A stretch of 63,198 nucleotides of DNA, counting the filler, from Dugesia japonica (Eukaryota): assembly GCA_001938525.1 (NCBI GenBank). It is 6 parts of 6 records of this genome, joined end to end, with 100 filler letters (N's around TTAATTAATTAA, not from the genome) between each part and the next. Parts side by side here need not be neighbours in the genome. Positions count along the whole stretch, not along the records: positions 23,146 to 31,451 come from MQRL01625971.1; 5 more parts are not named here. One strand, 5' to 3'. Every line of letters begins with the position of its first letter. Positions within the stretch are counted from its first letter, which is position 1. Below are positions 6,841 through 53,700 of this stretch, piece after piece. The notes beneath the pieces were generated by a model. The model made no database searches, was not told the origin of the DNA, and saw only the letters and a list, made by a program, of their open reading frames with translations. A program made the position numbers and the translations under genes.

Positions 6841-6974
6841 TAGTACTTTTTCTATAGCAAAATAATAGCCACTTTGTAGGCACTTTATAGCCGCTTATTA
6901 TTCCTCTTAAATTCTTATGTAAAATTTTTTATGCAAAATCTTTGCGCTCGACATTTTTTATAAAATATTTTTCA

Positions 6975-7165: not shown

Positions 7166-7179
7166 ACGTCCTTCTCCAT

Positions 7180-11159: not shown

Positions 11160-11515
11160 TGTATGAGATGGGACAGTCTTGATATTTTGCAAGAGACGAG
11201 GGGAGTCTCTATATTTAGCATTGTATGAGAGAAGTCTCTTGAAGGAAGTCTATATTTAACATGAGATTGGACAGGCTTGATATTTTGAAAGCAATGGGGA
11301 AGTCTAAAATTCATAGGTACGTGATTTTCATTGTATGTGTGTTGCATCTGAGTTGCACCTGAGTTGCATCTAAGTTGCATACTTATTCCATTTAATAAAA
11401 TTTTATTTAAAAAATCAATAAAAATTCCGAGGCACGTGATTTTCATTGTATGTGTGTTGCATCTGAGTTGCATCTTAATTGCATATCTATTGCATACACA
11501 CTGCATTCATTAATA
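11160..11515. repeat. Nested direct repeats with 11-bp gttgcatctga units
   Basis: cgtgattttcattgtatgtgtgttgcatctgagttgca at ~11320 and ~11435; atgaga(t/c)tggacag..ttgatattttg twice. Confidence 0.8.
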
Positions 11516-11708
11516 AAAAACTATTTACAATAAGAAACATTTATAACAACAACTATTTTTCTTTTCTTCTTCTTTAACTGTTACTTTCTTTAGATGGATT
11601 TCTATGGGTTCCTGGTTTGTCTGTCTCTTCTACAACCAATGAAATTATACATACACACACAATAAGTATACAAATAGATATTCTTTTAAATATTTCATTA
11701 TTTTTAAA

Positions 11709-12428
11709 ATGGCAGATATTCGCAATTGATCACACAAGCAATATAAAATTCTCAAGCAGATAGATTTATGCAACAAAGATAATGGAGATAATGTTGATTC
11801 TATACCTAATAAAGGATACTAAGAGTTGTCAATCGTCAATCAAGCCTATACACTGAACTATATGGACAATTTGAATATGTGTATAGTTAATAAAGCAGAG
11901 ACAATAAAAAGAGAATACAATCTGGAACCGTTCATGAATCCCTTGAAAGAAATATCTAACAACGAAATTTTGTTGTATCGATATAAGTTTGGGAAGAAAC
12001 TTCAAAAGGGTTTTCATGCTTTGATAGAAATTCAATTTTTTGATATTTTGGTGGTAATATTATTATTAATATTAATACAATAATTATTATTTAATTAGGT
12101 ATTAAGAAAAGAAGAAAGAATTAAAAAACTTCAATTCGATCTAAATGGTCTTGAAAACATGACATTTTTGATGAAAAACTTGGTAAGGTTTTGTGAAATT
12201 GATCCGCCAACAGTAGCTATCGAGATTTATAAGGAAGAAAAAGTAAACATTACTAATAAATTGAACATGGACATACAAAATCAGAGTTCAGAGATAATCA
12301 GTATAAACAGTACAAATGTTAAAATGCAANCTCTGCCCATTGTATTTGGTAAGCAAAGACAGTGTCGTGTGGATAGGAAAAAAAGCGGTAATATATTTTT
12401 TTATTTATGTAAATTTATTAATTATTAA
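11709..12428 (+). pseudogene. Intron-containing orphan gene convergent on polB
   Basis: ATG 11709 is in frame with ORF 11826 (two stops); a phase-0 45-nt GT-AG intron 12054-12098 joins it in frame to ORF 12159-12428. Confidence 0.6.
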
Positions 12429-13071
12429 TGTGCAGTGTTAAACAATCACACCAACATCTTGTTTCTTGGTTGAAAAAGACTTCGTTTTGTTAAGTGTTGT
12501 AAATATTTTGTGTACTTTTATGTGTTGTTTTTTCAAAGTTATATAATAATATTTTTTTAATCAAAGTCTTTTTTAATTTTAAATATATAATTTAAATTAA
12601 ATCTTATAATTAAATAAAAAATCTTTTTTTAAATAAAAAATCTTTTTTTAAATTACTTTCTTAAATTGTTGGTAATATTTTTAATTCGGATACGAAATAC
12701 TTTCTTTCAATATTTTCCAGCATTTATTCTAGTGTAAGGTCCAAATTCATTATCGATATTATTAATTCATTATTAATGGACATTTAAATTTATTTTGTTT
12801 ATATTTAACATGTATGTGTCATGCACAATGCATGCACAATGCATGTTTGCATTAAAACAAAACTTAATAAATAATAAAAAACAAATGATAATAACCACGT
12901 TTATTTAAATAAATACAATAATGTACAATTTTGATACAATACGTTTACAAATGTTTTTTCAAAATATTTTCTTTTTTTGTAGTCATAATCTAAACAAAAA
13001 AAAATTAAAATAGCATTTAAAAAACAAATAAATAAATACCGTTTGTTTATTAGAACGGTTTTTAGAAAAAA

Positions 13072-15535
13072 CTACTTAATACTATAATGACCATATGGGA
13101 CACTGTTATTTTTACCTTATCATCTGTATTACTCAGTGCTATTTTGTTCGACTTAATGCTATACAATTGATGATTTTTGGTGGTTATTCGAAATTTTTCC
13201 ACCGAGATTGATTTGTTCTATTATAACAGTCAAAGTAAGACTAATGAGAGATTTCTGTGTTCTTCAATGATATGCCATTTGGCCCTCATGCTGTTCTTAT
13301 CTCCGAGCAAGCTATAGCATTTCGGCCTCAAAAATACCCACTCTTGATACTTCTTCCCTTTATTCTCATCTTTAAATTTTCCTATAACTATTACTATAGA
13401 GTAAATACTGTTACTATAAAGGGAATGATCTTTATCATAATTTGAAGGATCAAGTAGCTGATCTCTCACCATACTTGTTGTTATTTTTTCTAATTTAGTA
13501 TTTTCTATTTCTAGTAAAAACTATCTGTATCGCCGGCTACAATATTAATTTTTCAATTATATTCCTTCCTGTACTTATCCAACTCAATGTACTGAATTTT
13601 GTACATTCTCAATTTTGAGAGGTCAAGTATAGTTTGTCCTATGAAGCTTGGATGATCTAAACAAACTATGTCCTTATTGAGAAGAACCACTATCAAATCA
13701 TCAACAATTTTGGTAGCTTTCTTAAATCCGGCTTTTGATGTATGTAATCAGCTTTTTTGCTAAATTACAAAAGCGCAAATTGATCCTGTTCTTGAGATTC
13801 TCAACTGATTTTCCCTATAGACTGTTACTTAACTGTTTACAATAATTTTTATCCAATTCCGAAACACAATTTGATCTGAGAATTGTGTTGGTGTTGATAT
13901 AATTCTCGAATATTGCTGGCTAGCTGAATTGAACTCCTCGATGAACCTCTATTACTTAAACTGTTAAACTTAAATACATTTGCTGCAATCTCCAGTGCAC
14001 TACGTTATTGTTCTTGAAATAGGGCGTTAACATTAATTTCTTTATTTTACAACCTGGATCCCTTCTATGTTTTGCTGCAACCGGAAAATCATTCAAATAA
14101 TCATGAATTTCTGCAGGAATCACCATGTCTACCTCTAAAGTGTATCCATATGGTAATGAATCTAGATCTACATTCTTACACTCTTCCAAAACCCTATCTA
14201 ATCCATCATAAATCCATTCAAAATTTGCTAAGGGCAACTTTTGACTAAGTGCTTAACCATATAGATTATTAATATCTATATACAACAAGTCAACATTTTC
14301 ACTAGTGGCAACATGGTGATTATTAATGAATTTTAACCCTCCTCTTATACCTTCTTCGTAAAAGGTGTACATATCGTTATTTTGGAGCAACTCAATTGTT
14401 TTTTCTATTGACTTCAATGCAAATGCTCATGACATACCAGGTATTCAGAAAAAAATTCAATGGCTCCAAGTTGTTGTGTGCTACAGACTTTGCACAGAAT
14501 TGCTGAAAATATCAGCTAATAAATACACATCCATCTTTAAATATAACACCAAATAGTCCAACAAATTTGTACAGCTGAATATTTCCCACATCGATAATGC
14601 TTTTTTATACTCTTACCTACTAATATCCTCTCATTTTGGTGGCATTTGCTTTGTTTCTTCCCAAACCTGTAAGCTTGTTGCAAAACTGTACGAAAATATC
14701 CCTTTGGCTTCGTAATAATCTGATTCATAAACTTCTCTGTAGTCAAAGGTGTCGCTTTTAAGGATCTAACAACAAAGTCCAATGAGGAATTTATGAACTG
14801 ATAGCTGTTGATGAACTTAATTGTTGTTTTATTTTGCCGTCAATTAAACATAGAAATTTTTCTGATGTTGTTGAGATGCATGATATTGCCCAATTCCTGA
14901 ACTTATTAATAACATACTTCAGACTATGATGAAGATTAAATCCTCGTAAATTATGAAAGACCACTGGTAGTTGAATATGCAGTTGTCTAATTAAATTGCA
15001 TTGATTACATGCTGCTCTTCTATATTTCTCTGTGAAATGGTCGTGGTCACGAACGGGATATCTTATTTCTTTCTTGCATAAGTAACAAATTTTTGCAGCT
15101 CTAAATTCTTCATCTTGAACCTTTGTTATTATAATTTTCATTTTTCCTTTTGTTTCATGATAAGGAAATACAATATTTTCACTTATTTCCTCCACAGCCT
15201 TTAAAAACTTATACACACAGTCATCTCCAATAAATTGTCTGTTTGTTGATTCGTTGGTAAAAGTACTAATCAACAATAGACTAGCCGAAACGGGTAAATG
15301 TTTCTGGAAATGCTTCTCGTCTGGAAGAAAAACCGATTCAAAGTCAGCATATATCATGAAAGGTGGTGTTATTGTTTTCAAATAATCCTTAAAGATTAAA
15401 TTCTTCTCCGATTGCATGGTATACATTGTGGAACCTGTCTGGATTTTTTCGCAAATTGGTTCATGCTTTTCATAAGCTACTCTATTTTTTAACCTATTGA
15501 GATACTTAGGACACCATGTTGATTAAATACGAACA
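13072..15535 (-). pseudogene. polB: Protein-primed family B DNA polymerase (Polinton type), 5'-truncated and frameshifted
   Basis: IYADFES (ExoI), CYLC..VRDHDH..AACNQCN, VVFHNLRGF, GIRGG, YIDINNLYG (motif A), K.LSNSL.GKSVEN (B), GDTDS (C), GKFKDE, FLRPKCYS, ALSNTDDK, PYGHY. Confidence 0.95.
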
Positions 15536-16482
15536 AGTAGATAGATTGGAGTGCACTGATACAAATCCACCCGGGGGAAGAAAAAATTTTTGTTTCAGAA
15601 ATTTGATTGGCTGCAAACATGTTTTCTAGCATTTGAACGGTAAAAAATTTTTGGTGTGTGATAACGTAGTTACAGTTTTGTCAGTAATACTGCAATTCGA
15701 TTGGTCGATTTTTTTCCATTTGTTGATGATGTCATGATAACGCAATGACAATAAATTGTTACGTAACTGTTACGTAATTATTATTTGTTTTAATTGATTG
15801 AATATTTATGATTTTCTTTGTCTAAATCAATTGCATTTATATATATTTTTAATTTAAATTAACTGAAATTAATGATTTTTTTGTTTAAACTAATCGAAAA
15901 TAATTATTTTTTTTGTTTAATTTAAGTGAAATTAATGATTTCTTGATTAAAGTAAATGAATGATATTTTAAATAAATTTTTTCGCTGGTAATATTAATAT
16001 TAGCCGCGCCTGTCAATATTAATATTAAATTTCTCCGGCAATGTTAATATTAACATTTAATTTCTCCAAACAATATTTACATTAGTGGCTCAGGTTTCGT
16101 ACTAATGGATGTTTTTGTGTTCATACTATGAGATGTTGGTTGGAAACAGTATTTGTTATAGGGTACAAACTATGAGATGTCTATGAGTATGCACTCTTGG
16201 CAGTAACCGACATTAGATCCTCCCTGAACAAACCATTTAATTCTCCTGACATTAGATGTTCACAGTTCTATTAATATTAGCTGCTCACCCAAAGAATTGA
16301 TTACTACTTCAAGGAAAATCATTTTTAATATTTATATTTATGTAAAATTACTCTTCGTCTTAGTATAATTAATGAAATCAGTATATTATTTGCATTCTTA
16401 TTAAAATTATTATCAATAATATCATTAAAAATTATTTTCATACATTGTTTCAATAACAGTTTTGATTGAATTCCATACCATT

Positions 16483-21034: not shown

Positions 21035-21605
21035 CATGATCATAATATTGGTCAGTGAATATTCACATTAGTATAACCCATGAGATGTTAACATTGACAT
21101 TGATATTATCATTGTTATTGCCCGGTGAATGTTAACGTCAATATTAATATTAATATTACCGGGGGAAGAATACATTAACATTAATATTAATATTGCCCAT
21201 ATGATGTTAACATTAATATTAATCTTAACATTAAAATTGTCCAGCAATTCTTTTATTCTGCAATAGAAATATCTCTTGGCAATGAAAATATTCCATATAC
21301 ACAATGGGTTTTCTTTCACTCTCAACTGACTTTCTCTCACTATATCTAACATCATTTGAGAACATCATGATCCAAATATTGGCCATTGGATATTAACATT
21401 GCCATTGATATTATCATTAATATTGACTGGTGGATGTTAACGTTAATATTAACCTTAATATTAATATTGCTCGGGGATGTAACCATTAACATTAATATTA
21501 ATATTTCCCGGGGAGGTAAACATTAATATAAATATTAATATTGCTGACGAAATTTAATGTTAATATTAATATTGACAGGCGCGGCTAATATTAATATTAC
21601 CAGCG
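21035..21605. repeat. Subterminal array of AATATT/GTTAAC palindromes separated by short GC-rich spacers
   Basis: gttaacattaatattaatatt(gcccgg..) units; mirrored at 15985-16085, related copies at 22245-22345 and ~39660-39690. Confidence 0.75.
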
Positions 21606-21945
21606 AAAAAATTTACTTACAATATCATTCATTTACTTTAATCAAGAAATCATTAATTTTACTTATATTAAACAAAAAAAATAATTATTTTCGATTAGTT
21701 TAAACTAAAAAATCATTAATTTCACTTACCCGTTAAATAACAAACTTGTTATTATTGTGTAATCATGACATCATCAACACATACAAAAAATCCACCAGTC
21801 AAATTGCAGTATTACTGACAAAATTACGTAACCACACAACAAAAAATTTCAACCATGCAAACACTAGCAGCTAATCAAATTTCTGACACGAAAAATTTTT
21901 CTATCCCCGAGGGGGGATGTTTGTATCAATGCGCTACTATCTACC

Positions 21946-22400: not shown

Positions 22401-24669
22401 AAACAAATCAAAACATGAAATTTATTGTTGATAAAACATGAATAATCGGTCATTGTGTACAGATGTTTAAATCTGGAACTTAATTGTAAATTATTTTTAA
22501 TAGTATAAATTAATTAGTTTAAATAACAAAAAAAATACCAATAAATATATTTCTTTTCATAATAATTAAGTTATATCATTAAGTTCCATTAAAATCATTA
22601 AATTATATAAAAGTTATATAGTTAAAATTTGATAATATTATGTAAAGTTTAAATCATTACAATGAAAATTGAAATGAAATTATAATCAAATTAAAATAAA
22701 AGCATTTACTTATACTTATTAAAAAAAGTCATTGTTAGTTGGGTTTAAAAAGCTCACCGTATTATCAATATCAAAATCCAAATTCATAACAATAATTTAT
22801 TAAAATCAAACTATAACCAACATTAGTTGTTAAACAAACAAATTAAAATCATGTGTTTTAATTGATGATCTTCTTTACTAAAATTTAAAAATTAAAACTT
22901 TTATTTATTAAAAAATTAAACTTTCATTAATTTTAATTTATTCTTAAACTAATATTTGTTTTATAATTACTATTATGGTGAGAATAATTGTTGGACTTAA
23001 CCATTGATCGCATTTGAGATTTCATTAAAATAAGAAAAGGCTTCGNNNNNNNNNNNNNNNNNNNNNNNNNNNNNNNNNNNNNNNNNNNNTTAATTAATTA
23101 ANNNNNNNNNNNNNNNNNNNNNNNNNNNNNNNNNNNNNNNNNNNNATAAAGTTGCATTTAGTTATGTTTTTTTAAATTATTAATTTTATTTTTTTGTGGA
23201 ATTTTTCGGGAACCTATCTTAATTATTTTTATAGATTCTCCAATTAAATTCTTATTCATTTTACGTTGTTTCAGTCTGCGTCGCAAAATTTAGGAACGTA
23301 TCTACGACGCAAATTGGAGTTCAGGTATACTTCTATTAAAGCTAATCTTAGACTAGTACAAACCAATTCAATAAGAAACACTTTCAAATTTCTCCTAAAT
23401 AGGGATCATCACTTGATATTGACATAGAATGAAAAAGGGAACTTGATGTCTTAGAACAAAATTCTTATGTTTATTGTGATTAATCAATTAAAAATATTTG
23501 TCATCAGACATCTTAAAATACTTTCAAAATCTATCAATCAGAAACTTCAGTAATTATTGGCGTCCAACTTTGTTGCTTCGATGGGCTTGTGTTTTGGTAA
23601 GCTCAAATGAACTTAAACAAAGTTAAGTTTATGCAAGATTGTTTTGTAATCAATTTAAAGTACAAATTAATACTATTTTAAAATTAATACTATTTAATAG
23701 TGGTGCATGTTTAAAAGCAAAAAAACAGGTTCTAAATGTTCGACTTTGAATATTCCCTGGAACTACTCTTGTCCTCCGAACTGATGCGATCAGAGTTAAA
23801 ACACTTGTGTCAACGACACACAAATTTATTGTGACTAGCCATTTTGCCGTCTGCATCATTGATCTATATTGCGGCTTCTTTGTATAAAGTTCTCGTTCCG
23901 AGCTATAATGAATCAAGATTTAAAGGTCGTTTTTTCAAATAAGTCTAAAATTTAAGAAAAGTTGAGATTAGAACACTTTGTAAAAAAAATTATAGGCTTC
24001 ATAAAAAGTATGGAAAAAACTTCCAAGGGCCGTATAAAAAACACGTTCAAAACATTTACACAACATTTTTACTTCTAGTAGTTAATATATCGTAAAAATA
24101 CTATTTGATTTTATTCATATGGTGATTCGTAAAAAGTAAAAATACGTTTATATTTACGGACATTGCTTTGTATATGCATTATTGATTCATTAATTTATTA
24201 TTAATGTATAAAATATCAATTCAAATATTTGTGATTTCAAGTATCTTTAGTTGTTGTCATTTCTGTAAATATAAACATTTTATTATAAGTCCTTAGGATT
24301 TTATGAATCACTCTGTATTTATATTTAAATTATATTCATTTTTTGTCTATTTATGTTGATAATATCTACAAAAACTTAGGAAGAAAAAATTGTGCAGAAG
24401 GTTTCATATAGGTCAACAAGTTGTGATTTTGCAAACAAACACTTCTTGAGAGGAAAGTAGACTGTGGCAAAACCCAGGCGGCAATTTGATGAATCGGAGG
24501 TACCATAAACTTAAGAGCGTCTTTACTCAACAAATGGTTTTATATGGTTATTAATTCAAAAGTAGACATTTTCAAAGTTTATTAAAAATTAAATAAATCA
24601 ATAATATATAAACAAATATGTTTAAATATTATATCTTAATCTTTTTGAACATTTGTTTTTTTAGCCCCT

Positions 24670-27600
24670 CGATCCTTCGTGGTTTAGGGATTCCAGAATA
24701 AATTAAAAGCATCTGATGTAAGCTTAGAAATTTTAATATTTCCAAATGATCTTCATATCTGTATCCATTTTTCTTTAAATTGTGGAGTTCAACCTTTACT
24801 AGAACTTCTTCCCCTTCAACAAAATTCCGGTGTACTCTTTAATCTGATTCATATTCATTTAATTTCAGTGCCGCATTTTTAAAATTTTCATTAACTAATT
24901 TTCTAACTTCTCCACTATTTGTATTGTCAATTAGTAATGGTCCATGAATCATAATTTTTCTTCCATAAATTATTTCAAATGGCTATATTCTAGTTGCCTA
25001 TTGTTGGGTTGAATTAATTGAAAATTGAATTCGAGGAAATAGCTTATCTCAACTAATTTTTATACATCCACTTTTTTTTAGTGACAACCATATCACGTAG
25101 AGTCCTGATCGTTCTTTCTGCCAATCCGTTTGATTGATGTTGGTATGGAGACAAAAATTCTTGGGTAATTCCAAATTTCTGAGTCATTCCTTTCATCAGT
25201 TTTCCTTCAAATATCTTGCCTCTATCTGTCAGTGTGGATTTGAGCTTGCCGAATCTATATATCCAATTCTATTTTATTGATTCAACTACAGATTTTTCGT
25301 CTTTTTTGGCGATCGCTGACAGGCTAACAAGTTTGCTGTATTGATCTATAATGATTAAAACATACTTCTTCAAAATAAGCTATATCAATGACAATCTGTT
25401 CTAACGCTTTTTTATTGCAAATTAAGCATATTTTTAAACTCATGTTCAATTTTTCTGAACATATCTGGCCAAACATAAGTGGTTTGAATATATTCAGTTA
25501 ATTTTCTCGTTCCCAAGTGACATAATTCTTTATGAATGTAATTTAATAAATCAACCACTGATTTACCTGCTAAAACAATCCTCTTTGTATTTTTATCAAC
25601 AAACAGTATTATATCTTCTTTCATAACAAATTTATCAATATCTCTACAGTATTTACTTTTATTTAAATTTTTAGTAACTTGGAAACTTTTATCTTCAATA
25701 TATGCAATTATCTCTATGATAATTGCATCATAACTTTGAATTTTTATGATACTTTCTTTATCATAATTTGAGCTTTCTACAATATTTATTCTTCTAACTC
25801 TATATTTTTTACCTTTTGCATCGCGATGAGTCGACAAACATTGGGCACATAAACTTTCTCCTATTCTTGATAATCTATCAGCATTATCATGATCAATGCC
25901 TTCACAAAATTGAAGATCAAAAGCAAATTTGGCTAGGTTTGTAATCCACGTCTGGAACTGTGAACTAATTGGTTTACTTGTTTTCTTCATAAACACTAAA
26001 GCCTTATGCTCAGTTCTGGCTATGAACTTTTCCCGTAAAGATAATGCTTGAAATTAATAATAAATTCGTGTAACGCCAATAGTTCTTTTCTGGTTACACA
26101 ATAACCCTTTCAATGATCATTCAAATTACGAGATGCATAAGCAATAACAGTTTCCACACCATCTTTTGACAATTGACTTAAAACAGCACCAATTGCATTG
26201 AAACTACCATCTGTATCTAATATCATTTTGCTCTGAGGATTTAGAAATGCCAAGATTGGAGAACTACATAATTTTTCTTTTAGTAGTTTAAAGCTGCTGT
26301 CACATTATTCAGTCGACTCTATGACTTCTTTTAATTCAGTTATTACTGCATATAATGGACTGGCAATTGTTGCGTTATTTTTAATAAATCTACGATAATA
26401 ATTTGTCAATCCCAAGAAGGTTCGAATTTGAGTTGCATATTTTGGAATAACAGTCTTTTTTTTTATTAATAATGTCATCATTTGTTTCAAAACCTTTAGA
26501 ACTGATTGTATGGCCAAGAAATTTAAGTTTTTGATACACTAAATATACATTTTTCAGGATTAATTTTGAAACCAGATTGCTCAATTAGTTCCAACACATT
26601 TTGTAAATGTTTATTATAAATTTCTTGTGTCTGACCAAAAATTAAAATGCCATCAAGGTAAATGAGCACTAAAGTAAATAACATCTTGTTGAAAATTTTA
26701 TGCAATAACTCTTGAAATGTTGCATGAGCAGTGCATAATTTGAACAGCATGCGATTAAGGCAAAACTGTCCTATTTTTGTGCCGAAAACTGTTTTTAATT
26801 TTGATTTCTCAGTTAATTCAACGTTATAATATGCCTGTCCTAGATTAATTGATGAGAAAAACATTTAACCATTTAATGTATCCATTAACATATTTATATC
26901 TGCAACAGGAAATGAATATTTTCAGTTACCGAATTCAATTTTTTTAAATCAATGCCTATTTTCAGAGAACCATCTTTTTGGAACAATTATTAATGGAGAA
27001 TTCCATGTACTTCGACAAGGTTTTATAATATTTGCTGATAATAGATTTTGTATTAACTCGTCTATCTTGCCTTTTAATTGCATAGGTTGTTTTTTGGATT
27101 TATCAATACGGGTTCTCTTTTAGTTTCTATGTTATGCATTGTCATATTTGCTAACCTTACATCAAATTTTGAATTCATAAAAATGTGGTGATATTTATCA
27201 AGTAATTTAATTATGCTGTTGGTAAACAGAAAAACATTATAAAAATAAATATCTAAATATACAATAATTTTTCAAAAAATTAAATTTCTTAAAATTTGTA
27301 TTAATAAAATCTTTAAATAAAGATTAACAAAAATATTTGATTATTTAAATACATTAATTAAAATAAAAATCAACCTGTAAATACATCTAAAGTGCATGTG
27401 TGTAAATAATTATTTGGAAATCCAAATGTTGATTGCCAAATGGAATTTGTTCCGTGAGTTTGTGTGTTGTTAAATTTATCCAGTAATCAATGGAGTTTTA
27501 GAAAATCCAAAAGATAATTGCATGCATTATGTTTTATTTTTNTCTAACTAGATTTGTGTGTATTTGATTGCTGAAAAATCAGTATAAATACTGATTCAAT

Positions 27601-28260
27601 TTTAGTTTGAAACACCAAAAAAAATTATTTGTAAAAATAAATGAATTAAAATTTTGCAACATTTTTCTGAAAAGATTTAATGATTCAATAAAATTCATTT
27701 AAGAGACTATTTACATTTGTTATTTATTCTGCAAGATGGACCTTTGCCTGATTAGTGGAACCAGGTCATTTTCTAATATTCAAGAAAATTTAGTACGTTC
27801 AAGATTATTGTTGAAAAAACACTCAACAATTCTATTGCTGATATTTAACTTGAGTGTATTCATTTTTTTAGTACTATGTTTCTTATGTTTGCATATAACA
27901 TTTTTTGAATTTATGTAATTGATTTCTTTTATTTCCATTCTAAACGCTTCCATTATATTGACATCATCAATAAAATGTAGACAAATGTCTTTAAAAATAC
28001 ATATTTCGTTCTCTATATGCTTTTTATTCCAAATTAATTTAATTCTAGCTTTTCCTAGCTTTTCACTTTTTTCAGAAAATACTCCAGCTAGCATTACATT
28101 TGAAAATCAAATTTTAGGTGAGCCAATCTTCTTCCAAATTTCCTCACTCATCACTGAGACAGACGCTCCTGAATCCCATAACATCTCTACACTAATTCTA
28201 TTACGATTTGCACTTCTCCAATTGCTATCATCATGTTTTTGATACATCAGTTTAACATCA
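24670..28260 (-). pseudogene. pol: Gypsy pol (protease, RT, RNase H, integrase), multiply disrupted; AT-rich insert ~27200-27760
   Basis: LWDSGASVSV; WNSPLIIVPK; IYLDGILIF; FLGLTNYYRRFI; DTDGS..IGAVLSQ; NADRLSR; HKELCHLG; TDRGKIFE; NGLAERTIRT. Confidence 0.92.
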
Positions 28261-28362
28261 GGTCTTCTATCCATATCTCGATTTTTCTCTTTAAAGTTTT
28301 TCTATGCAATCTCACTGACGAAATGGGCACAGCGGGTTACTGGACATTTTTTTCATTATTTT

Positions 28363-29450
28363 CTAAGATATTATTGCATCATGTTTAAAATCAATTAAGG
28401 AGTCACATTCATTTAAGGATTCTTCCCTTTCTTGTTCTGCTATACATAATATTCNTTGGTTATTATGCCCTCTTTGTAATAGTGCANAATTTCTGAAAGC
28501 CNGGCNTTCTTTACCGCATATTAAACACCTATTTTTTAAAGTACAGTTTATTCTTCTATGGTTTGTTTCTCCACAGCAAAAACAAGCACCATGCTGTAAA
28601 AATTCTACACTTGGAGGAGCCTTACCATCAAATCTATTATAAATTTTTGTTGCTACATATTTCAGAGAATAATTTGGAAATTTTCTTCTTTTTTCTTCAT
28701 TTATATCTTTTAACTGTTGCATATTATTACCAATCGTTGAATCGTTTGTCGGTTTTCTAGAAATTGTATAATATTTTGGAGTATTTTCTTTGTGATGAAA
28801 ATATTGTCTTCCGTAATTATTTCCCATTTTATTAAATTTTTGTTCAAAAGCTGATTTCTTAATAGCACTTGCATAGCTTTCGTTGACATTTGCATTACTT
28901 TTCGCTACAAATTTATCGAGGTTTGCAGCCGATTCTCGACGTTTTTCGTCATTTAACTCTGGTTGGAGTGCAAAGGATTCTTTTAACTTTTCACTTCTTA
29001 ATCTATTCAGAATAAAAAATCTTGATATCTCCTCTGGTGATTGTCGGTTTTCAAATATATCGTGGACAAGTGTTTTTAATCTTATCGCAAAATTTCGATA
29101 TTTTTCATCAGTCCTTTGTTTAACTGATGATAGATCTGTAATTTTTCAACCAGCGATGTATCAATAATAAATTTTGATCGAAACTAAGTTTCGAAATTTT
29201 CATTTGTATTGAAGTCATCATTTGTGTTCGTTTCTTGCCACAATTTCTTGGCATCGCTTTGTATTAGAATATCAAATGCAAAAGAAATTCCATTTGATTA
29301 AATATGACAAATTTCTTGGAGGTTTAAATTCAATCTTTAGCAGTATCTGAAGAACCATAAAAAATGTAAGCTTCGGAATAAGCATTTCTTGAGTAGCTTG
29401 TGGACGATTTTTAAAAATCTTTTGTCGCTCTTCTTTCCTTTGCCTAGTAA
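28363..29450 (-). pseudogene. gag: Gypsy gag with two CCHC zinc knuckles
   Basis: CFCCGETNHRRINC and CLICGKExxAFRNx. Confidence 0.85.
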
Positions 29451-29639
29451 TGGCACTAACTTCTACGTGGTCGCCAGTTAGATTTTTTAGACATTTTCAA
29501 AGTTTTTTTAAAAATTAAATAAATCAATATTATTTAAACAAATATGTTTAGATATTATACCTAAAAGATTTAGTTATAGAAAATTTTAACTTAGAGTTTA
29601 GTCTTTAAATATACTTTTATTCTATTTTTACTCATCAAT

Positions 29640-31010
29640 TTTTTGGATTTCTAGGATTTTGATAATAGATTCAGCCTATTCTCTTTCTCTAATTTTATTC
29701 GCAATTTATTATTATGACAGCAAAAATAGGGGCATACCTAGAAACCTCAAGCGTTTGTAACACTTCTGTGTCATGCCCCCCGTTTCTCGGGCTCAGTGCA
29801 TCTTTAAAGTATCGCTTCTTACTCTCTTGATTGATATGGGCAACCTCATTAAAAATTCGGCTGAGAAACAATTTTATACAGACAACGATGTGAATTATAA
29901 ACATGGTCATACATGTTTAAACAAGACACGTGAATTTAACTCGGCATCTTTAACATTTATTTATTTATTTACACCGATGGCCATTACGCATCCAGATCCA
30001 CAGATGGTTCCTTTCCATCCCCATCTTCCTGTGTTGGCTGGTAATTGAGCCACAATGTCCAAAGTGTGTTGAGCATTGCGATTCGCATATATTTTTTAAT
30101 CACATTCGCCATGCGTCTTTTAGCCTGTTAGTTCCTTTTCTTTTATTAGCTGTCTTTTCAAAATGAGTATTTCTTTGCGCAATTCACGCTGATTCTTGTT
30201 TCACCGTTTCTGCATCTGGAGAACTTCTTTCTTAAATACTGTTTCTTCAGTTTACTTGTTCACTAAATTATCAGCACTATAGGTGAGTATGTTAATTAAA
30301 GAAGATCGAAACGTTGTTTAATAAAAAATGGTTTATTCCGACAATTATTTTCTAGTCGGTAGACAAATATTATTTAGCTTATTGCGCGGCTTTTAATTAA
30401 TATCGTTTCATTCATATTCACACTTTGAGAATAAAAATTGGCTTTCTATATATTCAAAATGGATATTTAAAACAGAGTATAGCGTCGTGTCACGGCCTCT
30501 GCAATTGAACTCACAAGAGAAAAGTTTAATATAACATTTTGACTTTTCATGAAATACCTATCACACTAGTCCAATAACTTATTTAAACGAGCAACACTAA
30601 TTCTACAAGAAAACGCAACATTTGCAACATCCTTTTAGTTATTCCCTATTAGAGGAGCTTGGATAACAGCTCAATTTCCTGCATCATCTGTTGACAGCGA
30701 TATAATTCGCTTCTTCATTTGTCCCAACAGTACTCCATGTTCCATATTTTGTCAGATCAGCGCAACAGGTTCTTTTGGTATGAATCTCATCTCCTGGCGT
30801 AGTCCTGCAAGCTCAGCCTCGTTGCTGAACGGCCTGGGACTCGACCAATTGCTGCAGTAGAACTCTACATATTTCAGCTAATTTAGCACAACAATGCTAA
30901 ATGGCCACCTTTTTCTTCTCATAGATCATTTTACGCTCGTCTGTTAATTCTGCGGCGCATCGCTATCGGATCCAAAAGGTTTCTTCATCTCCATCATTCA
31001 TGAGTACTAG
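29640..31010 (-). mobile_element. Decayed cluster of small orphan ORFs, repeated at 52931-53700 and probably 41906-42148
   Basis: 29729-29830 matches 53022-53120; 30090-30275 translates NLVNK.TEETVFKKEVLQMQKR..RELRKEILILK, matching ORF 53399-53677. Confidence 0.65.
29729..29779 (-). ncRNA. Candidate 51-nt three-way-junction structured element (second copy 53022-53072)
   Basis: GGGGCAU/AUGCCCC closing two hairpins; all 8 differences between copies preserve the fold, including one compensatory pair. Confidence 0.5.
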
Positions 31011-31551
31011 TGGGATGTTCTGATGGTAATATTCAGTCATATTATGTTAATAAATAAAGTTAACGACATTTATTATTTCAATCATCGATAATTTCTTTCA
31101 AATAGTCAAATTTTGAATACAATTAGTGAATTTTTGGCCTCCAGCCTATTGGGTCTCTTTCCTCCATTCCTGGAGACTGAAATACTTTTCGTATTAAATA
31201 AATCATTTTCTCTGCCTAATTTTCATCCTTTAATAAATTGTTGAGATGAATTCAAGACTATTACTAACACAAATCAACAATTGCGCTGGTAGATTTTAAA
31301 AGAGATTTTTGGCAATAATCCAGGTATCGTTATATTATACTTATATAGATTCTCCTATAAACTTTAATAAAGTTATTATAGATATTTCATTAAAATAAGA
31401 TAAGGCTTCGATCAAAACAAAACAAAATTTATTTGTAAAAAAAGTTCAAATNNNNNNNNNNNNNNNNNNNNNNNNNNNNNNNNNNNNNNNNNNNNTTAAT
31501 TAATTAANNNNNNNNNNNNNNNNNNNNNNNNNNNNNNNNNNNNNNNNNNNN

Positions 31552-31617
<66 letters not shown>
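31552..31617. repeat. (AAT)n microsatellite (also 32340-32505, 42155-42221, 55247-55325, 58435-58509, 63128-63198)
   Basis: Direct reading. Confidence 0.95.
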
Positions 31618-31618
<1 letters not shown>

Positions 31619-31842
31619 GCATTAACAGTTTGAATGTTATTATATATTCAATGGTTATTCTAAATTATTATTAGATTGTTTTTATTAAATCTATTTAAAT
31701 ATAGATGCGAGATAAAACGAAAGTGTGTAAAAAGAAAATTAAATACATAGATATTTAAAACTTCTAAGAATTCTAATAAATTTGGTAAAATTCGAAATTA
31801 AGAAAATAATAAAAATAAAAAAATTATACTTTTGAAACTTAC

Positions 31843-32336
31843 TATTCTGCAGAATCAATTAATTGATATTCTGCTGATCTTTGAAAACATGATTGTATGC
31901 CTTTATCTTTCCATAGGTTAACCATGGAATTATACAATGTTTCATTAAGAGGTCCACTCGATTCTACAGTTCCAGCCAACTGAAGTAAAGTTTGAGCATC
32001 ATTCTAAAATTAAAATAAAATACATTAAGTATTAATTACTTTAAAGTATATTTTACTAATCGTTCGGGATCCGTAAAATCAATATTAAGTTTCGCCATAG
32101 CTCTGATGATAACTATAAGACTTTGTATAGTATTACTAAATATCAATGATCGAAATCCTAATCTTTCTGCTTCCGAGTGACCGTTATCAACAATTAACCT
32201 ACAAAGGCAAATAATCAACATTATTAATATCTTAAATAAACTTATCTTGTCAAAATTCTCGGTAATTAATTTAGAGTATTCATTTTATATTAGAAATGAA
32301 TATAAATTTTATTATAAAAGTTAAACAATATATAAA

Positions 32337-32788: not shown

Positions 32789-34339
32789 GATATTCTAAAA
32801 TATTTTAGTTATTTAAATCGAAATTAAGTGTTTATAATTATCCCTTGATAATTTAAAACAAACATACATTACATTTATTTTTAAGAATATTTTATATTTA
32901 TATAATTAATAACTACTTTTAATGTTATGTTTAAATGTTTCTTTGAAAATTTTTTACTAATTTTAATTTTATTAATTTAATATTTGTAAAATAAATTTTT
33001 TTTCTTATGAAGTTAAAATTAGCTTTCTTATAGGGCATTGGTAAAAATATTTTATAAAATATATTTTTAATTATTTTAATTTGAAAAATGTAAAATGAAA
33101 TATCATTCAATTAATAAATAAAATCAAAATTTTGATTTAAATATAAAATTAGAGAAAATAGATCATTATCACTTTCTTCGTTTGTTTAAATATTCTAATT
33201 ATAATTGATAAATTGTCGTAAATTTATTGAATTGTTTATTTTAATAATTTTATTGTTTTTTCTAATTTCTTCTACATATTATAGAAATTTTGATTAAATA
33301 TTTGCATTAGTATTTGAACTCACTAGATTTTAAATTCTTTTTATTAAGTAAAACCGATGTTTTACATACCAGGAAATATCATTGCAATTTATCAAATTTA
33401 ATTATTTTCTAGAATAGAACTAGGAGACTTAGAAATGATAGAACCTGTACACTGGCTAAATTATAAAATAAGTACATAGTAAAATAGATCGTGTGATTAA
33501 TTTTCAAAGCATGAGAATTTTTGAATGGTCAAAATTTCGATAAATTTGCAGTATTTATTGCTTGTATAATTTCATTTAATAACAGTGCGGTTAAAAATAG
33601 AATTTTTTAAAAAATATTACTAAAATTTTTGCAATTACAATTGATTTTTATTGTTTTAATATTAAATAAATAAAAATCTCAGATAAAAAAAGATTCTCTT
33701 TTATTTCTTATTAGAGATTCAAATTTTCGACAATAATTTTTTTAAGTGATTTAAGGGAATCATGTTGGACTTCCAATAAGAAATGAAAATAACATGTAAA
33801 CAATTTATTGAAACGTTTTTATTTATTTTATTTCTCAATTATTTTATTCAGTAATTCTTGTCTATTCATGCATTTTTATTTTTGATTTCTGAAATTTATA
33901 TCGAATTTATTTTTTAATAAAATTCAAATAAGAGTATTTTTACAATAACAATTATTGCGAAAATAATTGTTGGACTTTGATCGCATTTGAGATTTCGTTA
34001 AATTAAAAGCTTCGATCAAAATTTTGTTTATTTTTTTATGGAGGTTTTGCGATTCTGTGCAGTGAGTAAATCTAAAAAGAGAAAAAGTAAAACCTTGGTA
34101 AATAATGAATTATATTCATCATAATTTTATGATAGTTGTCTGTATAATTATTTACAGCTACACAAATTTAATATTTCAAATATATTTTGATTTTAAAATT
34201 GAAATATTTTTTTGAAACTTTTCAATTTTATTATTTTAATTTTGACACAAATGATAAAAATGAATTAGAATATTTTTGCATAGATAAAGTAAGAGGAAAG
34301 TACATTCAAATAGTATTTGATTATTCAATCCATCATACA

Positions 34340-44532: not shown

Positions 44533-45581
44533 CAATAACCGATGGTTTGTCACCGTAACAAATACATTGAAGGAATTCATGATAACAAAAATTTAAGAAC
44601 TACCGGTATATAGGATGTAACCACTTTATTGAATGTGTTTGTTTTTGATTAAAATCTTATAGCGTAAGATTGATGAGAGACAACTAGTCAAATTTTATGG
44701 GGTTTTCTGGTGACAGTGATTCTCAGGATAATGACTAATTTATTAGATTTTTATTGCATAGAATGCAGTATAGACTTCTATTTACTTCCGTAATAAACTC
44801 TTTCGGATATTGTCTGACGTGTTTTGTTTGGTTTCTGGTGATTGGGTTTAAAGTAGATGTCAGATGGGTAAAATTTAAACAAAACAAATAAAATTATCAA
44901 AAATACACTTATTTTAAAAAGTTACAAAACCTAGGAAGATAAGTAAACACTGTGCCATCCCCTCCTTCCCCTCTACCTGGTCGAGAAATTTGAAGTGGCT
45001 AAGTAATTTTGAGTATGCATTATCGTGGATTTTGGATTTTAAATTTTTATCGGATTAAAATATTTATTTTGTTTTTTTCTTTTAATTAATGAGAGAAGTT
45101 TCCTTGAATTTTAAATTTTGTTTTCAATCTCTTTGAATTTTTTAATAAAAAATTTAAAATTTTTTGCGGTATTGATGAAGAATGGTATTGCGCATGTATA
45201 TGTGTATGTTATCATATTGTTTTGGTGTGTGTATGTCTTGTGTGTGTGTAAAGATATTGTAAAAATTAGAATTTAAAATGTTGTAAAAAGTTCCATTTTT
45301 GCTTAAAAGTTTCAAATGTTACCAAAAGTTACAATAAGTGGCATTGGGTTGCCCTAATAATAAGTCTAATCAAAATTGACAATATTGGGAGCAAATAACC
45401 ATATCAAACCGTTACGTTGGTTTTATAAGTTGTTGTGTTAGAATTTTATAAAGTTTTTAATAATCTAAAATTTATTTAATAACATTAAGGATGATTTCTG
45501 ATTGGATAATTTTGAAATTATACAAATCCAAACATGAACTAAATTTAGCTAAATTACATAAATCAAATCATAGTTAATTTA

Positions 45582-46379
45582 TTACTGAAAAGGCGGGCAG
45601 TAACATAGAACTTTGAAATTTCTCGTATCTTTATTGATGAGTACATAAACATTTCCTTCAACATTAGTTGATAAAAATTCTTTAGAATCGGTCATTGGGC
45701 TGCCAATTGCAAGATCAAATTTATATTTGTTCTTAATTGTCGTGAATTCTTTGTTACTGGTCCGTTTAGCACCAAACATAAACATTTGGTTTTTGAAAAC
45801 TAAAATTATATTTTTAAATATGATTTTTAAAAAGAAATCTTTGAATAAATTACTAGATTTACAAGATTGAAGTTCCATTTTCAACAAGGGTAAATTTCTA
45901 AATTCTGCAACAACTCCTTTATTTTTAATACATCCATCCATTGCTAGTTCAAACGAATTTATATTTTGTAATAAAAAGTATGAATCGCATTTATTTATTA
46001 TTTCTTCATTAACTGTTTGTTTACAAATAGGATTAGGCTTTTCAGGATCAACTGGTTGATATGTTGACCTTGAAAATACCTGGGTATTATCAACAAGAGA
46101 ATAAATACCTTCACTGCTAATGGGATAATAAAAATCATTATCAGCAATATATGATAAAGTGCATGATTCGTCTTGTACTATATAACTAACTTCACAACAT
46201 CCTGTAGAGTGGCACTCTATAATACATTTCAGAAATCCTTTAGTTTTTTTTATTATAGACTCAGCACTACAATCTCTTTCAAAATCATTGAGATGCCAAA
46301 TATTTTGTAAATGTACATTATTAAAACATAATAAAAACAAATTCGTTACGATAAGTAATTTATATTTATCAATAAACAT
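45582..46379 (-). CDS. Secreted PAN/apple + C-type-lectin-like protein; probable 54-nt in-frame intron 45800-45853
   Basis: Hydrophobic N-terminus; CIIECHSTGCCEVSY...CTL (PAN); SYFLL..SFELAMDGC..GVVAE..MFGA..KVLC (CTL-like); GT..AG AT-rich segment. Confidence 0.7.
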   Translation of the reverse strand: MFIDKYKLLIVTNLFLLCFNNVHLQNIWHLNDFERDCSAESIIKKTKGFLKCIIECHSTGCCEVSYIVQDESCTLSYIADNDFYYPISSEGIYSLVDNTQVFSRSTYQPVDPEKPNPICKQTVNEEIINKCDSYFLLQNINSFELAMDGCIKNKGVVAEFRNLPLLKMELQSCKSSNLFKDFFLKIIFKNIILVFKNQMFMFGAKRTSNKEFTTIKNKYKFDLAIGSPMTDSKEFLSTNVEGNVYVLINKDTRNFKVLCYCPPFQ

Positions 46380-46869
46380 TTCTAGAGAATCAGACAAATG
46401 TCTGAAAATTTTTGAAAAAGATTTTATTTGTAGAATTTTTACGAAGAAAAATCGATTTTTTTTTAAAAATAAATATCGTTTAATTGGTTGATCAAATTTG
46501 TTTATATAGATGGAAAATTGTGAAAAGTAAATTAAAAAAAGTTTTTAATAAATGCTAAATAAATGATTATTTTTTTAAAATTTTATTTCAACGACTTTAT
46601 GTATTATTAAAAGAGTTTCTAACACAAATTGCCTTGTGGCTTTTTTTTGATAAAATTATATCGAATTTTAGATTGAAACAAATTTTATAAAATTTTCAAA
46701 AATTAATTATTGAATTTGTATTTTTTTTTATTTTTTAAACTCAACTGAAGTATCCAATCAATCTCTTTAATAACTAATCATTGTTATCATATTACTAGTT
46801 TCTTCTGAGAAGCCAGTAATTTTTGAATTTGGTTTTAATTTTCAATCTGAAAATGAGAATAATTAGAAT

Positions 46870-49640
46870 AAATCTAAATTTATTTTTCTAAAGTTTGTAG
46901 CTAGTAAATATAGCAGACCACTAAAAGCTGTCAAACAAAACAAAAAAAGAAATGGAGGGAAAGTTTGTAAACGCTAATTGAAATCTTCCAAATCAGACCA
47001 TCTGGCTCTACTGCCATTGAATCTCTTCAAGAGTGCCAGCCTGTCCGTTGTGGAAACTTCAATTTTTACTCGACCAGGCTATGCATTTCCTTGTCGAGAC
47101 AAGAGCAAATTTTCTTATCACATTAGCGCGTAACCCAACCTGTTTTAGCACTGGTTCATGTTTAACACGCCAGGATTCCAGACACCCTACTGAGATCGTC
47201 TCAAGGAGAACTTTTCAATTTTGAAGGTTTTTCTGAATGTCCTCCTTCAGTGGTGTGTATTTATTAATTTTCAAGTTTCTCGCCAATTTTAGATTACTTG
47301 ATGTGTCGTAAGGGGTTTTCACATCCAGTAGGAAAATATGCTTCTTCCTAACATTAATAAGCTGTAAATCAACGCGATCAGTCCTATTAACAAAGTCACA
47401 GGTCCAATCGAGTATGACATTGAAGCTTGTATTAGCTCCAACAACCCTTGCAAGCAACTCAAGGACATCATTGTGGCTAATTTCAGTCCAAGTTTTTGTC
47501 GGACCGGTTACAAACTGGGATTTTTGCCCCCTTTTAAAATCCGGAGATGATAATTTCGACTACTATTGTGAAAGTAATCGGCTGAAACGTCATTATTAAT
47601 AAGCTCAAAGATCGCTTTTTGAGAGTGGTAAAACTTATTCCTGAGGTTGAGATCAATAAATATTTACCTCGACATTCTAAGTTTTATTTCCCCGCCAATT
47701 CTAAAGTTCAAATGTTTTGGTTTCATGTTTCTGATATAGTAGATGTAGCTATAGAGCATGTCCTTCCCTGTAATAATAATCTGAGTAATGCAGGAGTCAA
47801 TGTGAACAAGGCTGCCACTGTTTAGATGGGTATCCATAAAAGCATTGATTTGTTCATCACTGAACCAACTGCTATCAATAATCTCGGAAGAAGGATTATC
47901 CACAGTTGTGGGGAGTGAGGCAATTGTGGGAGCAACTGTGGGCCATAAACGTCATTTCTCATGAGATATGTGTTTTTCCTGGCTCTTGATTGCATCAGAA
48001 AAGGTTACACTATTTGCAATTTTGGCAGCATTGTAAATAGTAACGATTGAAGAAGCAGTATTTCCAATCTGCATTGTGGTTGCCTTACTATTTTAACTAC
48101 GCATGAAGATTGATTTAGGCGTAGATTTTATCCGTTTGTTATTATTGCTTTTTGATTTGGGATATTTTAAAAACTAAGCATAAGCAACAGCACTTTTTGA
48201 CGCACGAGGACTTTCAGAAATAGTCAGTTGACTAGAGATATGCATAGTATTAGTGGTGTCAGAACTTGAAGTTGGTAGCACTTTTGCTGGTGAGTTGGGA
48301 GCCGATTTATTAGCAAATATAAAAGAATCAAATACATTTCACTCCAAATCAGAGCTCTGAGCAATATTTTCAGTTTCAAGGGACGCCCATCCATCAAAAT
48401 AGCAGAGGTGTAAAGTAATGGGCGATTGAGAAATGTCCACAAAAATTTCATCCTTATCTGCAATATGTGGAGAAGGTATGTCCTGATTATGATCAGCAAT
48501 AGTGTCAGGGACAGGGAGTTCTTCAACAGCTATAACTAATTTATTGTTTCTGCGCTTAATTGTCTTTCTTTTTTGCTTAAATTTGGTTATCAGTCCAGGT
48601 TTATGATAATAGATAGTATTAATTTGAATATTCTTTGATAAAACATTAATTTTAAATACAGAGTCATTGAATTCATAACCATTGTTAGCGGTTGTGACAC
48701 CAGCAGTGTTGCATTGAGATGTATTAGTAAAATTATTATTATCTAAGATTTGCAAGTGTTTGTTATTGCTATTATATAAGTTTAGATAATAATTAGAATT
48801 AATTATTTTAGAATTTTTAGAATAAATGACAGCAGATTTATCATGAAAAGATTCTACATTAGAAAATTTATTGCTATTATAGTCATTTCTAGTAGATTTG
48901 CTATAATTTACTGAGTTCATATATTCATTGTTTAAAAATGAGCTAGAGGAGTTTGAATTTAAAACCGGGAAAGTATCCAGTACGAATCACTGGTAATTAA
49001 CTTGCTACTCCAACATGTGCATGATATATCTCATAAAATTTTTTTTATGACTATCTTTTCTCCAACTAAATTTCAGTCTATTTCATGCTAGTTTATTGCT
49101 TTGAACATTCCTCTCTAGGCAGCCGGTAGTCTATTGTTTCAGCTCCAGTTGGGCGACAATTTCGATCCTCAATTCACAACAATACTTTAATATCTCAATG
49201 ATTGAGTCAGTTGACAGTCTATTTCGATTCAGCTCCAACTGCTCGCTAATGTGAAGGTTCTCAGTCAGAATCCCATGATTCAGCTGATGTGTAACTACGA
49301 CGCTACCCGCGATCGCATTACCAAATAAATTTCTTAAAGCCCACAACACTACTGATGCCACACTTGGGGTTAACTATTGTACCATCTTGTCAACAGTGAG
49401 TCCTCTGATCGCAAGATACCACGGACAATTTGCGGCCTTATCCTACCGGGATTTTTCACCCTAAAATCTAAAACTCTGTAGAGCTATTGGTAGTTAGCTG
49501 TAGGGAGTGAGTGTCAAGGCGCACTCACGCCAACCAAACGCCATAAGTGGTCAGCTTAAAAAATGCGATGCTCATTGCCGGCTCCCTCGTTTATTCCCCA
49601 TAGAATTCGTGAGTTTATCTAGCCTTGACTAAACTCCATT
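46870..49640 (-). mobile_element. Internally deleted RLE-type non-LTR retrotransposon (NeSL-like): N-terminal region, Ulp1-like protease remnant and restriction-like endonuclease; RT absent
   Basis: SHNDVL..RVDLQL..IFLLDVKTPYD..ARNLKINKY..ISVGCLESW (RLE); WFSDEQINAFM (Ulp1-like start) only ~400 bp upstream. Confidence 0.78.
49502..49636 (-). ncRNA. Candidate pseudoknotted 5' leader RNA of the RLE element
   Basis: Four stems, three abutting with zero-nt junctions, plus 8-bp loop-loop complementarity GUCAAGGC/GCCUUGAC. Confidence 0.5.
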
Positions 49641-52930: not shown

Positions 52931-53700
52931 TGTAGATCGATGTAGTGTGTTCCCGGCTGAGCCCCCAAAACCCTTGTAGGGTTTTTAGGATTTTCAATAA
53001 TCTAATACTTTAGTTTGTCTAGGGGCATACCTAAAAACTACAAGCGTTTGAGTCACCTCTGTGACATGCCCCTTATTTCCTCAGGTTCAGCGCGACTTTG
53101 TGGTATCACGTCTTAGCACAGCTTTCATGACTTCGATCTAACTTTTCTCTCAGTGCTCAGTATTCCGTCATAGTGATTGTAANNNNNNNNNNNNNNNNNN
53201 NNNNNNNNNNNNNNNNNNNNNNNNNNNNNNNNTCCGTCATAGTGATTGTAAAAATTGAATCTGGCCATACATAACCATTATAAATGAGAAAAACAAACTA
53301 ATGTGATATCGAACAATTTTATTAAACTAATTTTCCGCATCCAAATCAACCGTGGTGTGGTTTACTCTTGACTCCTCAGATGGTTCTCGATATAACAATC
53401 ACAGTGATCGTAAATTAGTAAATNNNNNNNNCTCTCGATCGGCATAAACTTTGATTATATCAGCCATCAAACGGTTGGCTTGTTGTAGGGCCAGCTCCTT
53501 CTCTTTAAGCTTTTGATGTTTGAGATTGTGTTTGGTGGTCTGTGTTTTCAGCTTTAGCACCTCATTTCTGAGCGTCCTACGCTCTTCCTTCCATTTCTTC
53601 TGCATCGCTAGCACGTCCTTCATACTGACCTTACTTTCTGTTGTTTTATCCACTAAATTATAATGAGAATTAAGCAAATGTTGGACACCACTATCAATTG
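52931..53700 (-). mobile_element. Second copy of the orphan-ORF module, next to a possible degenerate family terminus
   Basis: tgtagatcgatgtagtgtg at 52931; homology to 29640-30290. Confidence 0.55.
53399..53677 (-). CDS. Small basic coiled-coil orphan protein
   Basis: MKDVLAMQKKWKEERRTLRNEVLKLK..; homologous relic at 30090-30275. Confidence 0.55.
   Translation of the reverse strand: MLNSHYNLVDKTTESKVSMKDVLAMQKKWKEERRTLRNEVLKLKTQTTKHNLKHQKLKEKELALQQANRLMADIIKVYADREXXXFTNLRSL

Follow-up and report, generated by a model that had tools for sequence, protein, structure and literature searches.

What keeps a 51-nt motif recognizable in two diverged copies in planarian DNA, and what does it do there? 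The window, a stretch of 63,198 nt with filler included, is AT-rich eukaryotic DNA (G+C mostly 0.17–0.35) with numerous assembly gaps; it harbours Maverick-type genes and a decayed gypsy element beside a spliced gene for G-alpha. Each motif copy lies 1.7 kb or less from a gap. A reading made from the sequence alone had described the motif as a covarying three-way junction and proposed a cis-acting RNA or single-stranded DNA signal for replication, packaging or 3'-end formation. The motif is real, we find, and part of a non-coding module under constraint in an abundant mobile element, a module that most likely serves the element's own copying.

The two 51-mers were verified in sequence and position, at 29729..29779 (copy 1) and 53022..53072 (copy 2), both on the minus strand. 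Their eight differences are also as described: one A-U/U-A swap, one G-U to G-C change and five unpaired positions. A search of the window for GGGGCAT-N30-45-ATGCCCC gave exactly these two matches, and 100 shuffles gave none. All 16 of 16 pairs survive eight random substitutions in 0.37% of 200,000 trials, or 0.8% with transition bias, for a structure picked after the sequences had been seen and with two sequences supplying one compensatory pair. The two-sequence consensus energy is equalled by 0.67% of 3,000 mutated controls, and its covariation term alone is unremarkable. The observed covariation score is reached by 263 of 500 shuffles. Overall, the earlier description is confirmed in part.

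Two of the three proposed arms are plausible. P1 (7 bp) has a pair probability of 0.98–0.99 and is invariant between the copies. P2 (5 bp with a 4-nt loop) is the site of the sole double change; its mean probability, 0.75 in copy 2, falls to 0.02 when copy 1 is folded by itself. The third arm, AAAC/GUUU, which would complete the three-way junction, is ambiguous and gained no support: its four pairs are all invariant, with no covariation, its mean RNA pair probability is 0.00 and 0.16 in the two copies, and RNAalifold chooses the helix GCUUG/UAGGU instead. As RNA, the full three-way fold scores −14.7 against a minimum of −17.6 in copy 1 and −16.5 against −17.6 in copy 2; as DNA, no fold of copy 2 scores lower on either strand. 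One mixed line of contig loose ends (15 contigs, agreement 0.71) has other P2 letters that mostly still pair, which is only suggestive of kept P2 pairing.

The conserved unit is wider than the 51-mer. Taken as a stand-alone unit, the motif had been drawn too narrowly: homology spans 96 nt (29727–29821 versus 53020–53115; 77% identity, E 1e-13) and resumes downstream. The 51-mer is the best-conserved core at the centre of a larger module, made of a block of about 100 nt, a variable AT-rich spacer and a second block of about 37 nt. Block 1 of copy 1 (29727..29821, minus strand) contains an imperfect upstream hairpin (29816–29797), segment A (29796–29789), the core and segment B (29751–29737). 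Its counterpart in copy 2 (53016..53115, minus strand), at both edges of which contig loose ends pile up, has the hairpin at 53110–53091, segment A at 53091–53083 and segment B at 53044–53030. Segment A lies between the upstream hairpin and P1; the hairpin has 83% of its cells paired and is unstable by itself as DNA. Block 2 of copy 2 (52955..52991, minus strand) holds a segment B' (52989–52973), an alternative hairpin (52985–52967) and a segment A' (52964–52956), and that of copy 1 (29645..29665, minus strand) holds B' alone, A' being missing; 1 of 300 shuffles aligns as well as the two do. The copy-1 spacer (29666..29726, minus strand) is variable, AT-rich and hairpin-capable, with AATAAA at 29710 and 29699. 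The copy-2 spacer (52992–53015, minus strand) is shorter, unrelated and free of AATAAA.

Block 2 is complementary to two parts of block 1 and follows the letters of its own copy. B' is complementary to segment B, the strand that had been split into P3 and J3/1. We sought the complement of B in the next 100 nt of each copy (background 0.6% and 0.8%), and the exact complement is 8 or 9 nt within a copy versus 5 nt across copies. In copy 1, 8 nt at 29655–29648 are exactly complementary to that copy's B; copy 2 forms 15 pairs around a 2-nt bulge. Over the two copies, B and B' lie 40 and 81 nt apart. The A/A' duplex of copy 2 (−11.6 kcal/mol, background 4.7%) makes the weaker case. The hairpin that block 2 of copy 2 can form by itself excludes B/B' pairing, and a 9-nt palindrome follows the 15-nt B' that this hairpin overlaps. 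Whole-module folding is moderately better than that of shuffles (copy 2, z −1.9 as RNA and −2.8 as DNA; copy 1, −1.5 as RNA). In favour of an RNA switch, G-U pairs of the minus strand occur in P2, B/B', an extension of P1 and the closing pair of the hairpin; wobble in the A/A' helix falls on the plus strand and counts against one. On these models, the module's fold and its switching are inferred, and its design appears two-state. Behind 53115, the commonest flank of other copies in runs X1, X2 and X23 (agreement 0.49–0.57) contains a short stretch able to pair with segment A, as a rival to A'.

Protein coding is next to impossible as the reason for this conservation. The frame GHxTEVxQTL..RYAP is indeed open across the core in both copies. 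Yet its codons show one synonymous versus four non-synonymous changes, with the differences falling 1/4/3 over the codon positions, and none of six frames of the core has a synonymous excess. Deletions of 1 and 2 nt at 53074–53075 break the frame in 3–31 contigs per run, and the frame has no match in Pfam. The codon-type pattern that the sequence-only reading had named as a refuting outcome was not found, a result in that reading's favour, and the coding explanation is largely refuted.

The module is also held more tightly than the coding exon beside it. A coiled-coil coding exon lies upstream of copy 2 (53327..53652, minus strand), after a conserved AG that we infer to be a splice acceptor; a gap of 8 N and a stop codon in frame interrupt this exon. 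The homologous exon upstream of copy 1 (29984..30262, minus strand) is broken by stops and frameshifts. The two exons differ 15/13/28 by codon position, a codon-type pattern, and no shuffle of 300 aligned as well. In both copies the motif follows some 140–210 nt past the exon's stop codon on the same strand. Identity is 43/51 (84%) in the core and 74/96 in block 1, versus 73/129 (57%) in the gap-free block of the exon (Fisher p against the exon, 0.0005 for the core and 0.002 for block 1). The motif is non-coding and its conservation goes beyond shared ancestry. Because the exons have diverged in codon fashion, and at 57% versus 84%, we take the copies to be old paralogues in which the motif is tighter than the protein.

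The protein of the exon upstream of copy 2 has one match among 1.84 billion representatives, the relative P0001 at 49% identity; a word-index search gave no candidate, a search for related loci gave none, and in the Atlas its neighbours are generic coiled coils, a weak recognition. Homology farther upstream of both copies is not significant (117 of 200 and 44 of 300 shuffles as good), nor is that between the DNA downstream of copy 2 and the DNA upstream of the copy-1 exon (97 of 200 shuffles; best blastp E 0.11). Broken ORF-like stretches also lie beside the motif copies, at 31030–30620 and 52870–52640 (both minus strand), the latter itself repeated at a depth of 0.25–2.5 thousand. A 19-bp direct repeat surrounds a 50-N gap at 53164–53251, where matching contigs skip 69–78 bases; repeat and gap are probably an assembly artefact.

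Public assemblies mark the module as a high-copy repeat. We profiled the copy-2 region (52560–54060) at 80% likeness in public runs. Summed contig depth in run X2 is 239,383 at 53039 and 424,650 at 53108. The two bins of block 1 reach 198,635 and 381,034 in X2 and 75,597 and 138,232 in X1, and block 2 (at 52978) reaches 67,105 and 57,533. Depth is 3–11 thousand on the exon and 0.2–2.7 thousand in most flanking bins, so that the module stands about 100-fold above its flanks, with the same pattern in X1. Among the contigs listed, eight long ones from X2 have a depth of 12–41, which suggests very roughly 10^4 module copies, depth being different from copy number and open to inflation by tandem arrays. 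A terminus proposed about 90 bp downstream of copy 2 is not borne out by the profile, in which depth is 70–156 at 52932 versus 57,533–67,105 at 52978.

Copy 2 deviates from most contigs at 53039, 53083, 53108 and 52978, among the 40 of 237 difference rows listed, and at 53039 at least 124–125 contigs have the alternative letter. With the letters that most contigs show at 53108 and 53083, wobbles become Watson-Crick pairs. At 53039 and 52978 B/B' has 15 pairs in both states, as judged by eye from unphased contigs. Polyadenylated RNA is sparse: run X23 gave 253 matching reads out of 13.6 million, and run X22 gave 7 out of 10.5 million; these reads come from both strands, none is 99% alike, and they span no joints. 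No stacked read ends occur among the 253 and 7 reads, which come from fragmented libraries in which small non-polyadenylated RNAs would be missed.

The module matches no known ribozyme among those searched, in line with the sequence-only reading, which had recognized none. Rfam 15 covariance models gave best E values of 2.1–4.3, all far under the gathering threshold, and by-eye resemblances to 5S rRNA, SRP, group II intron domain 5 and U7 were dropped, with no such match in Rfam. The hammerhead core is CUGANGA, followed by stem II and GAAA; neither strand has a full core, and a lone CTGAGGA at 53084 in copy 2 is absent from copy 1 and most contigs. HDV-like ribozymes place a P3/L3 hairpin directly before the 3' strand of P1, itself a 7-bp helix from G1. 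A descriptor of this layout found no candidates in any of four strand-regions, and although the plus strand of copy 1 has an L3-like TTCTCG, P3 and P2 cannot form around it. Twister L4 loops end in AAGC, and no L4-like loop occurs on either strand. The twister layout, in which P4 closes the L4 loop and two pseudoknots form, is described in the excerpted PMC11662667.

A covariance model built from the two sequences gave 21 matches in all, the two strong ones being the input copies and the other 19 scoring at most 13.2 bits; the window holds no third copy. Motif pattern scans gave no matches in viral contigs, metagenomes or prokaryote genomes. Among the matches listed by an exact-sequence literature search there was only the 10-mer CAAACGCTTG, under unrelated titles. 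No description of the motif appears in the excerpted texts of PMC6431247, PMC8532177, PMC11410931, PMC11417382, PMC4067079, PMC8557442, bioRxiv 10.64898/2025.12.11.693146, PMC11662667, PMC7229834, PMC2836005 and PMC3601003. The family has no Rfam entry and may carry a name in the repeat libraries Repbase or Dfam.

The setting of copy 1 points to a retroelement. Directly downstream of it lies a decayed gypsy gag-pol (24563..29465, minus strand) with protease, reverse transcriptase and integrase fragments, next to a gypsy 5' LTR end (29466..29565, minus strand). The latter comprises a 78-bp repeat (29488–29565), which has a twin of 91% identity at 24563–24639, and a PBS-like TGGCGACC at 29476, which we take to match the end of tRNA-Arg. 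This type of site is unique within 23,000–32,000. From copy 1 to the PBS-like site and the co-oriented gag is 250 nt, with AATAAA three times between (29710, 29699 and 29621). We estimate that chance would bring copy 1 so close to PBS and gag about 1% of the time, and it is mainly because of this improbability that we favour placing the module in an LTR. Copy 1 need not be part of the element to which this 5' LTR end belongs.

Other features of the two loci weigh on this placement in both directions. Copy 2 has neither PBS nor gag after it, which counts against an LTR. Downstream of the two copies the DNA aligns at chance level (22 of 200 shuffles as good), and that of copy 2 contains no AATAAA. 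In copy 1, A' is lost exactly where unrelated DNA starts, a loss just as compatible with the insertion of a short-LTR gypsy into an independent element. Of the 3' LTR only the last 78 bp remain, too little to show either LTR length or the recurrence of the motif expected in a second LTR; typical animal gypsy LTRs average 174–695 bp (PMC3601003, in excerpt). Gypsy LTRs have TGTTRNR...YNYAACA ends and a TSD. Around copy 2 there is a candidate solo LTR (53921–52173, minus strand; 1749 bp, TGTTA...TAACA, 5-bp inverted repeat, 6-bp flanking repeat), a configuration matched by 8.7% of 1,190 random sites; on the copy-1 side, TGTTAG at 31269 is 1793 bp from the LTR end. An intron in sense orientation would better suit a DNA element and speaks against the LTR, and the sparseness of polyadenylated RNA weighs against the retroelement reading too. 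With gag as the query, no loci were found. In planarians, giant gypsy elements that carry accessory ORFs have been described (PMC6431247, in excerpt). The adjacent gag-pol differs from such elements (Burro/GYPSM1) in spanning about 4.8 kb, and membership of the module in its LTR is putative. With its module upstream of AATAAA, LTR end and PBS, copy 1 resembles the R regions of gypsy/Metaviridae LTRs; residual conservation in long gypsy R regions has been linked to stem-loops (excerpted PMC3601003), and no two-block module of this kind was met in the literature searched.

Our best explanation, held tentatively, is a two-state RNA fold in the 3' portion of the transcripts of a very abundant retroelement family, with a long gypsy LTR as its probable site. 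Such a module would sit in the U3/R part of a long gypsy-type LTR that also bears a small spliced coiled-coil gene. In the local state, the upstream hairpin, P1, P2 (with or without the third arm) and the block-2 hairpin would form. In the long-range state, block 2 would zip onto segments A and B, open the third arm and close off the spacer. The two folds are predicted to be mutually exclusive. Retroviral R regions contain RNA switches. By analogy with them, the switch might set the use of the nearby poly(A) signal or present the RNA end for packaging or strand transfer. Every lineage of the family would retain the module as the remainder of its LTR drifts, and we propose that the depth peak arises because of this retention. 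Of the cis-acting signal proposed earlier, its non-coding, folded and mobile-element nature carries over; the exact three-way junction and the stand-alone 51-nt unit do not.

Two alternatives are DNA transposons. A rolling-circle end signal of HLE2 type (Helentron/DINE-1), acting as folded single-stranded DNA, is unlikely, though it is the main rival. Block 2 would then be the sub-terminal repeat and stem-loop, B its inverted partner, block 1 the core and the exon cargo, with a gypsy later inserted into copy 1 at about 29637. HLE2 elements have a 12–16 nt subTIR, a partner subTIR at the far end and, in autonomous copies, a RepHel protein, and they insert between T and T. In DINE-1, a 13-bp subTIR is accompanied by an inverted repeat close by, a conserved core and a stem-loop; the subTIRs of HINE may be palindromic (PMC4067079, in excerpt). 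The module shares with Helentron, HINE and DINE-1 a short inverted repeat pair, a stem-loop, a core and high copy number. The 15-nt B' with its overlapping hairpin and palindrome, the three-way fold, which as DNA has the lowest energy on either strand of copy 2, the scarcity of RNA and the tolerance of introns suit such an element too. The module's spacing is longer, however, B and B' lying 40 and 81 nt apart versus the 3–22 bp described (excerpted PMC4067079), and no T|T boundary is seen: no T-run flanks block 2, right after which conservation ends (depth 70–156 at 52932). Rep/helicase was found by none of 74 Pfam queries, although non-autonomous copies need none, and the far end of the element was not seen, its upstream ends being cut by gaps. 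Canonical Helitrons (HLE1), which end in a hairpin and then CTRR and insert before T (PMC11417382, in excerpt), were rejected: CTAG in copy 2 overlaps P1 and has an A after it, copy 1 reads CTAT, and the CTAC after block 2 is unconserved. Block 1 could also be the end of a cut-and-paste transposon, either a terminal inverted repeat of about 100 bp or a MITE end, with TGTCTAG as its first plus-strand letters, a reading we judge improbable. Conservation would then reflect transposase binding sites and the fold would be a by-product of short palindromes. The invariance of P1 and the third arm is what binding sites would show, loose ends cluster at 53016–53018 and 53115, and one 1162-nt contig matches 53017–53134 alone. 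Against it, the last four letters are absent from copy 1, block 2 lies outside the end and nonetheless tracks its own copy's B, and the window has no inverted copy. A block of about 100 bp with a plus-strand TGT edge recalls Ginger, whose TIR begins TGTNR (excerpted PMC2836005), but the start here is TGTCT (53016–53020), and no inverted partner, CCGG/RTATAY target or transposase is seen.

Two further alternatives assign the module to other elements. There is an outside chance that it folds as the 3' terminus or pseudo-LTR of a Penelope-like or Terminon-like element, in the role that hammerheads play in these, possibly as a self-cleaving RNA of unknown class. Terminons bear coiled-coil ORFs and a 3'-terminal ribozyme fold (PMC6431247, in excerpt), and the module has in common with Penelope-like elements, Terminons and non-LTR retrozymes that a fold is conserved after a coiled-coil ORF, within an element that is repeated; its pseudoknot-capable layout and variable spacer would suit a ribozyme. 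Against this stand the failed hammerhead, HDV-like, twister and Rfam searches on both strands, no Penelope-like reverse transcriptase or GIY-YIG found nearby, and, though not decisive for self-cleavage, the lack of stacked ends in the 253 and 7 reads of fragmented libraries. Unlike hammerhead retrozymes, moreover, it shows no hammerhead core, no 150–450 bp tandem array in the window and no abundant module RNA in two poly(A)/cDNA runs. A SINE core or a repeat derived from a small RNA, embedded in different hosts, is very unlikely. It would account for a very deep core of about 100 nt with heterogeneous flanks, and SINE/5S and SINE/7SL have expanded in Dugesia (bioRxiv 10.64898/2025.12.11.693146, in excerpt), but the upstream exon common to both copies shows that they did not insert independently, and we find no Pol III head: there is no tRNA, neither 5S nor SRP among matches up to E 10, and no box A/box B pattern. 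Another likeness is to the Xrn1-resistant RNAs of flaviviruses, small three-way junctions whose third loop can pair downstream. A three-way junction whose third loop pairs downstream would be common to both; unlike those RNAs, the module has no Rfam match, its partner is 15 nt long, distant and would open the arm, and it is a chromosomal repeat.

The retroelement switch would add to a known kind of object, structured cis-signals in mobile elements, a module that is new to Rfam and outlasts the adjoining coding exon. It is quite a long shot that the module, about 170 nt in all, represents a class of catalytic or 3'-end-forming RNA not described before, one that replaces hammerhead, HDV or twister in a retroelement clade. 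If it were, it would be a pseudoknotted switch with a variable spacer in about ten thousand copies in one animal genome. Eukaryotic repeats are a source of self-cleaving ribozymes, both hammerheads (PMC7229834) and twisters (PMC11662667), each as excerpted. Thousands of diverged natural copies in public data make a rigorous covariation test cheap, and its outcome would be either the identity of the element class or a new RNA motif. Even a mere end signal would serve as a marker for classifying an abundant repeat family.

Elsewhere in the window, five gaps of 100 bases, at 9059, 23046, 31452, 42222 and 54068, hold the linker TTAATTAATTAA and are assembly joins. A scan for bacterial promoters and terminators found none. 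The G-protein alpha host gene (32794–31842, minus strand) has introns of about 45–60 nt, and a search with it gave no matches. The stretch at 45500–51800 is richer in G+C, strand-skewed and contains broken ORFs, with no Pfam matches, and represents one or more unclassified elements. Maverick/Polinton-like genes lie within 1100–15500, among them a double jelly-roll capsid (4528–5325), a phospholipase A2-like domain (3963–4196) and an endonuclease VII (14791–15426). Inverted repeats of 169 nt at 15860–16028 and 21560–21728, 96% complementary and 5.5 kb apart, mark another terminal-repeat element. A further dispersed repeat occurs at 23016–23045, as a truncated copy at 31381–31410 and, seen by eye, near 33990–34020. 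A host ORF at 54612–58145 (plus strand) encodes 1177 aa rich in Asn and Ser and has one relative, P0002, at 61% identity.
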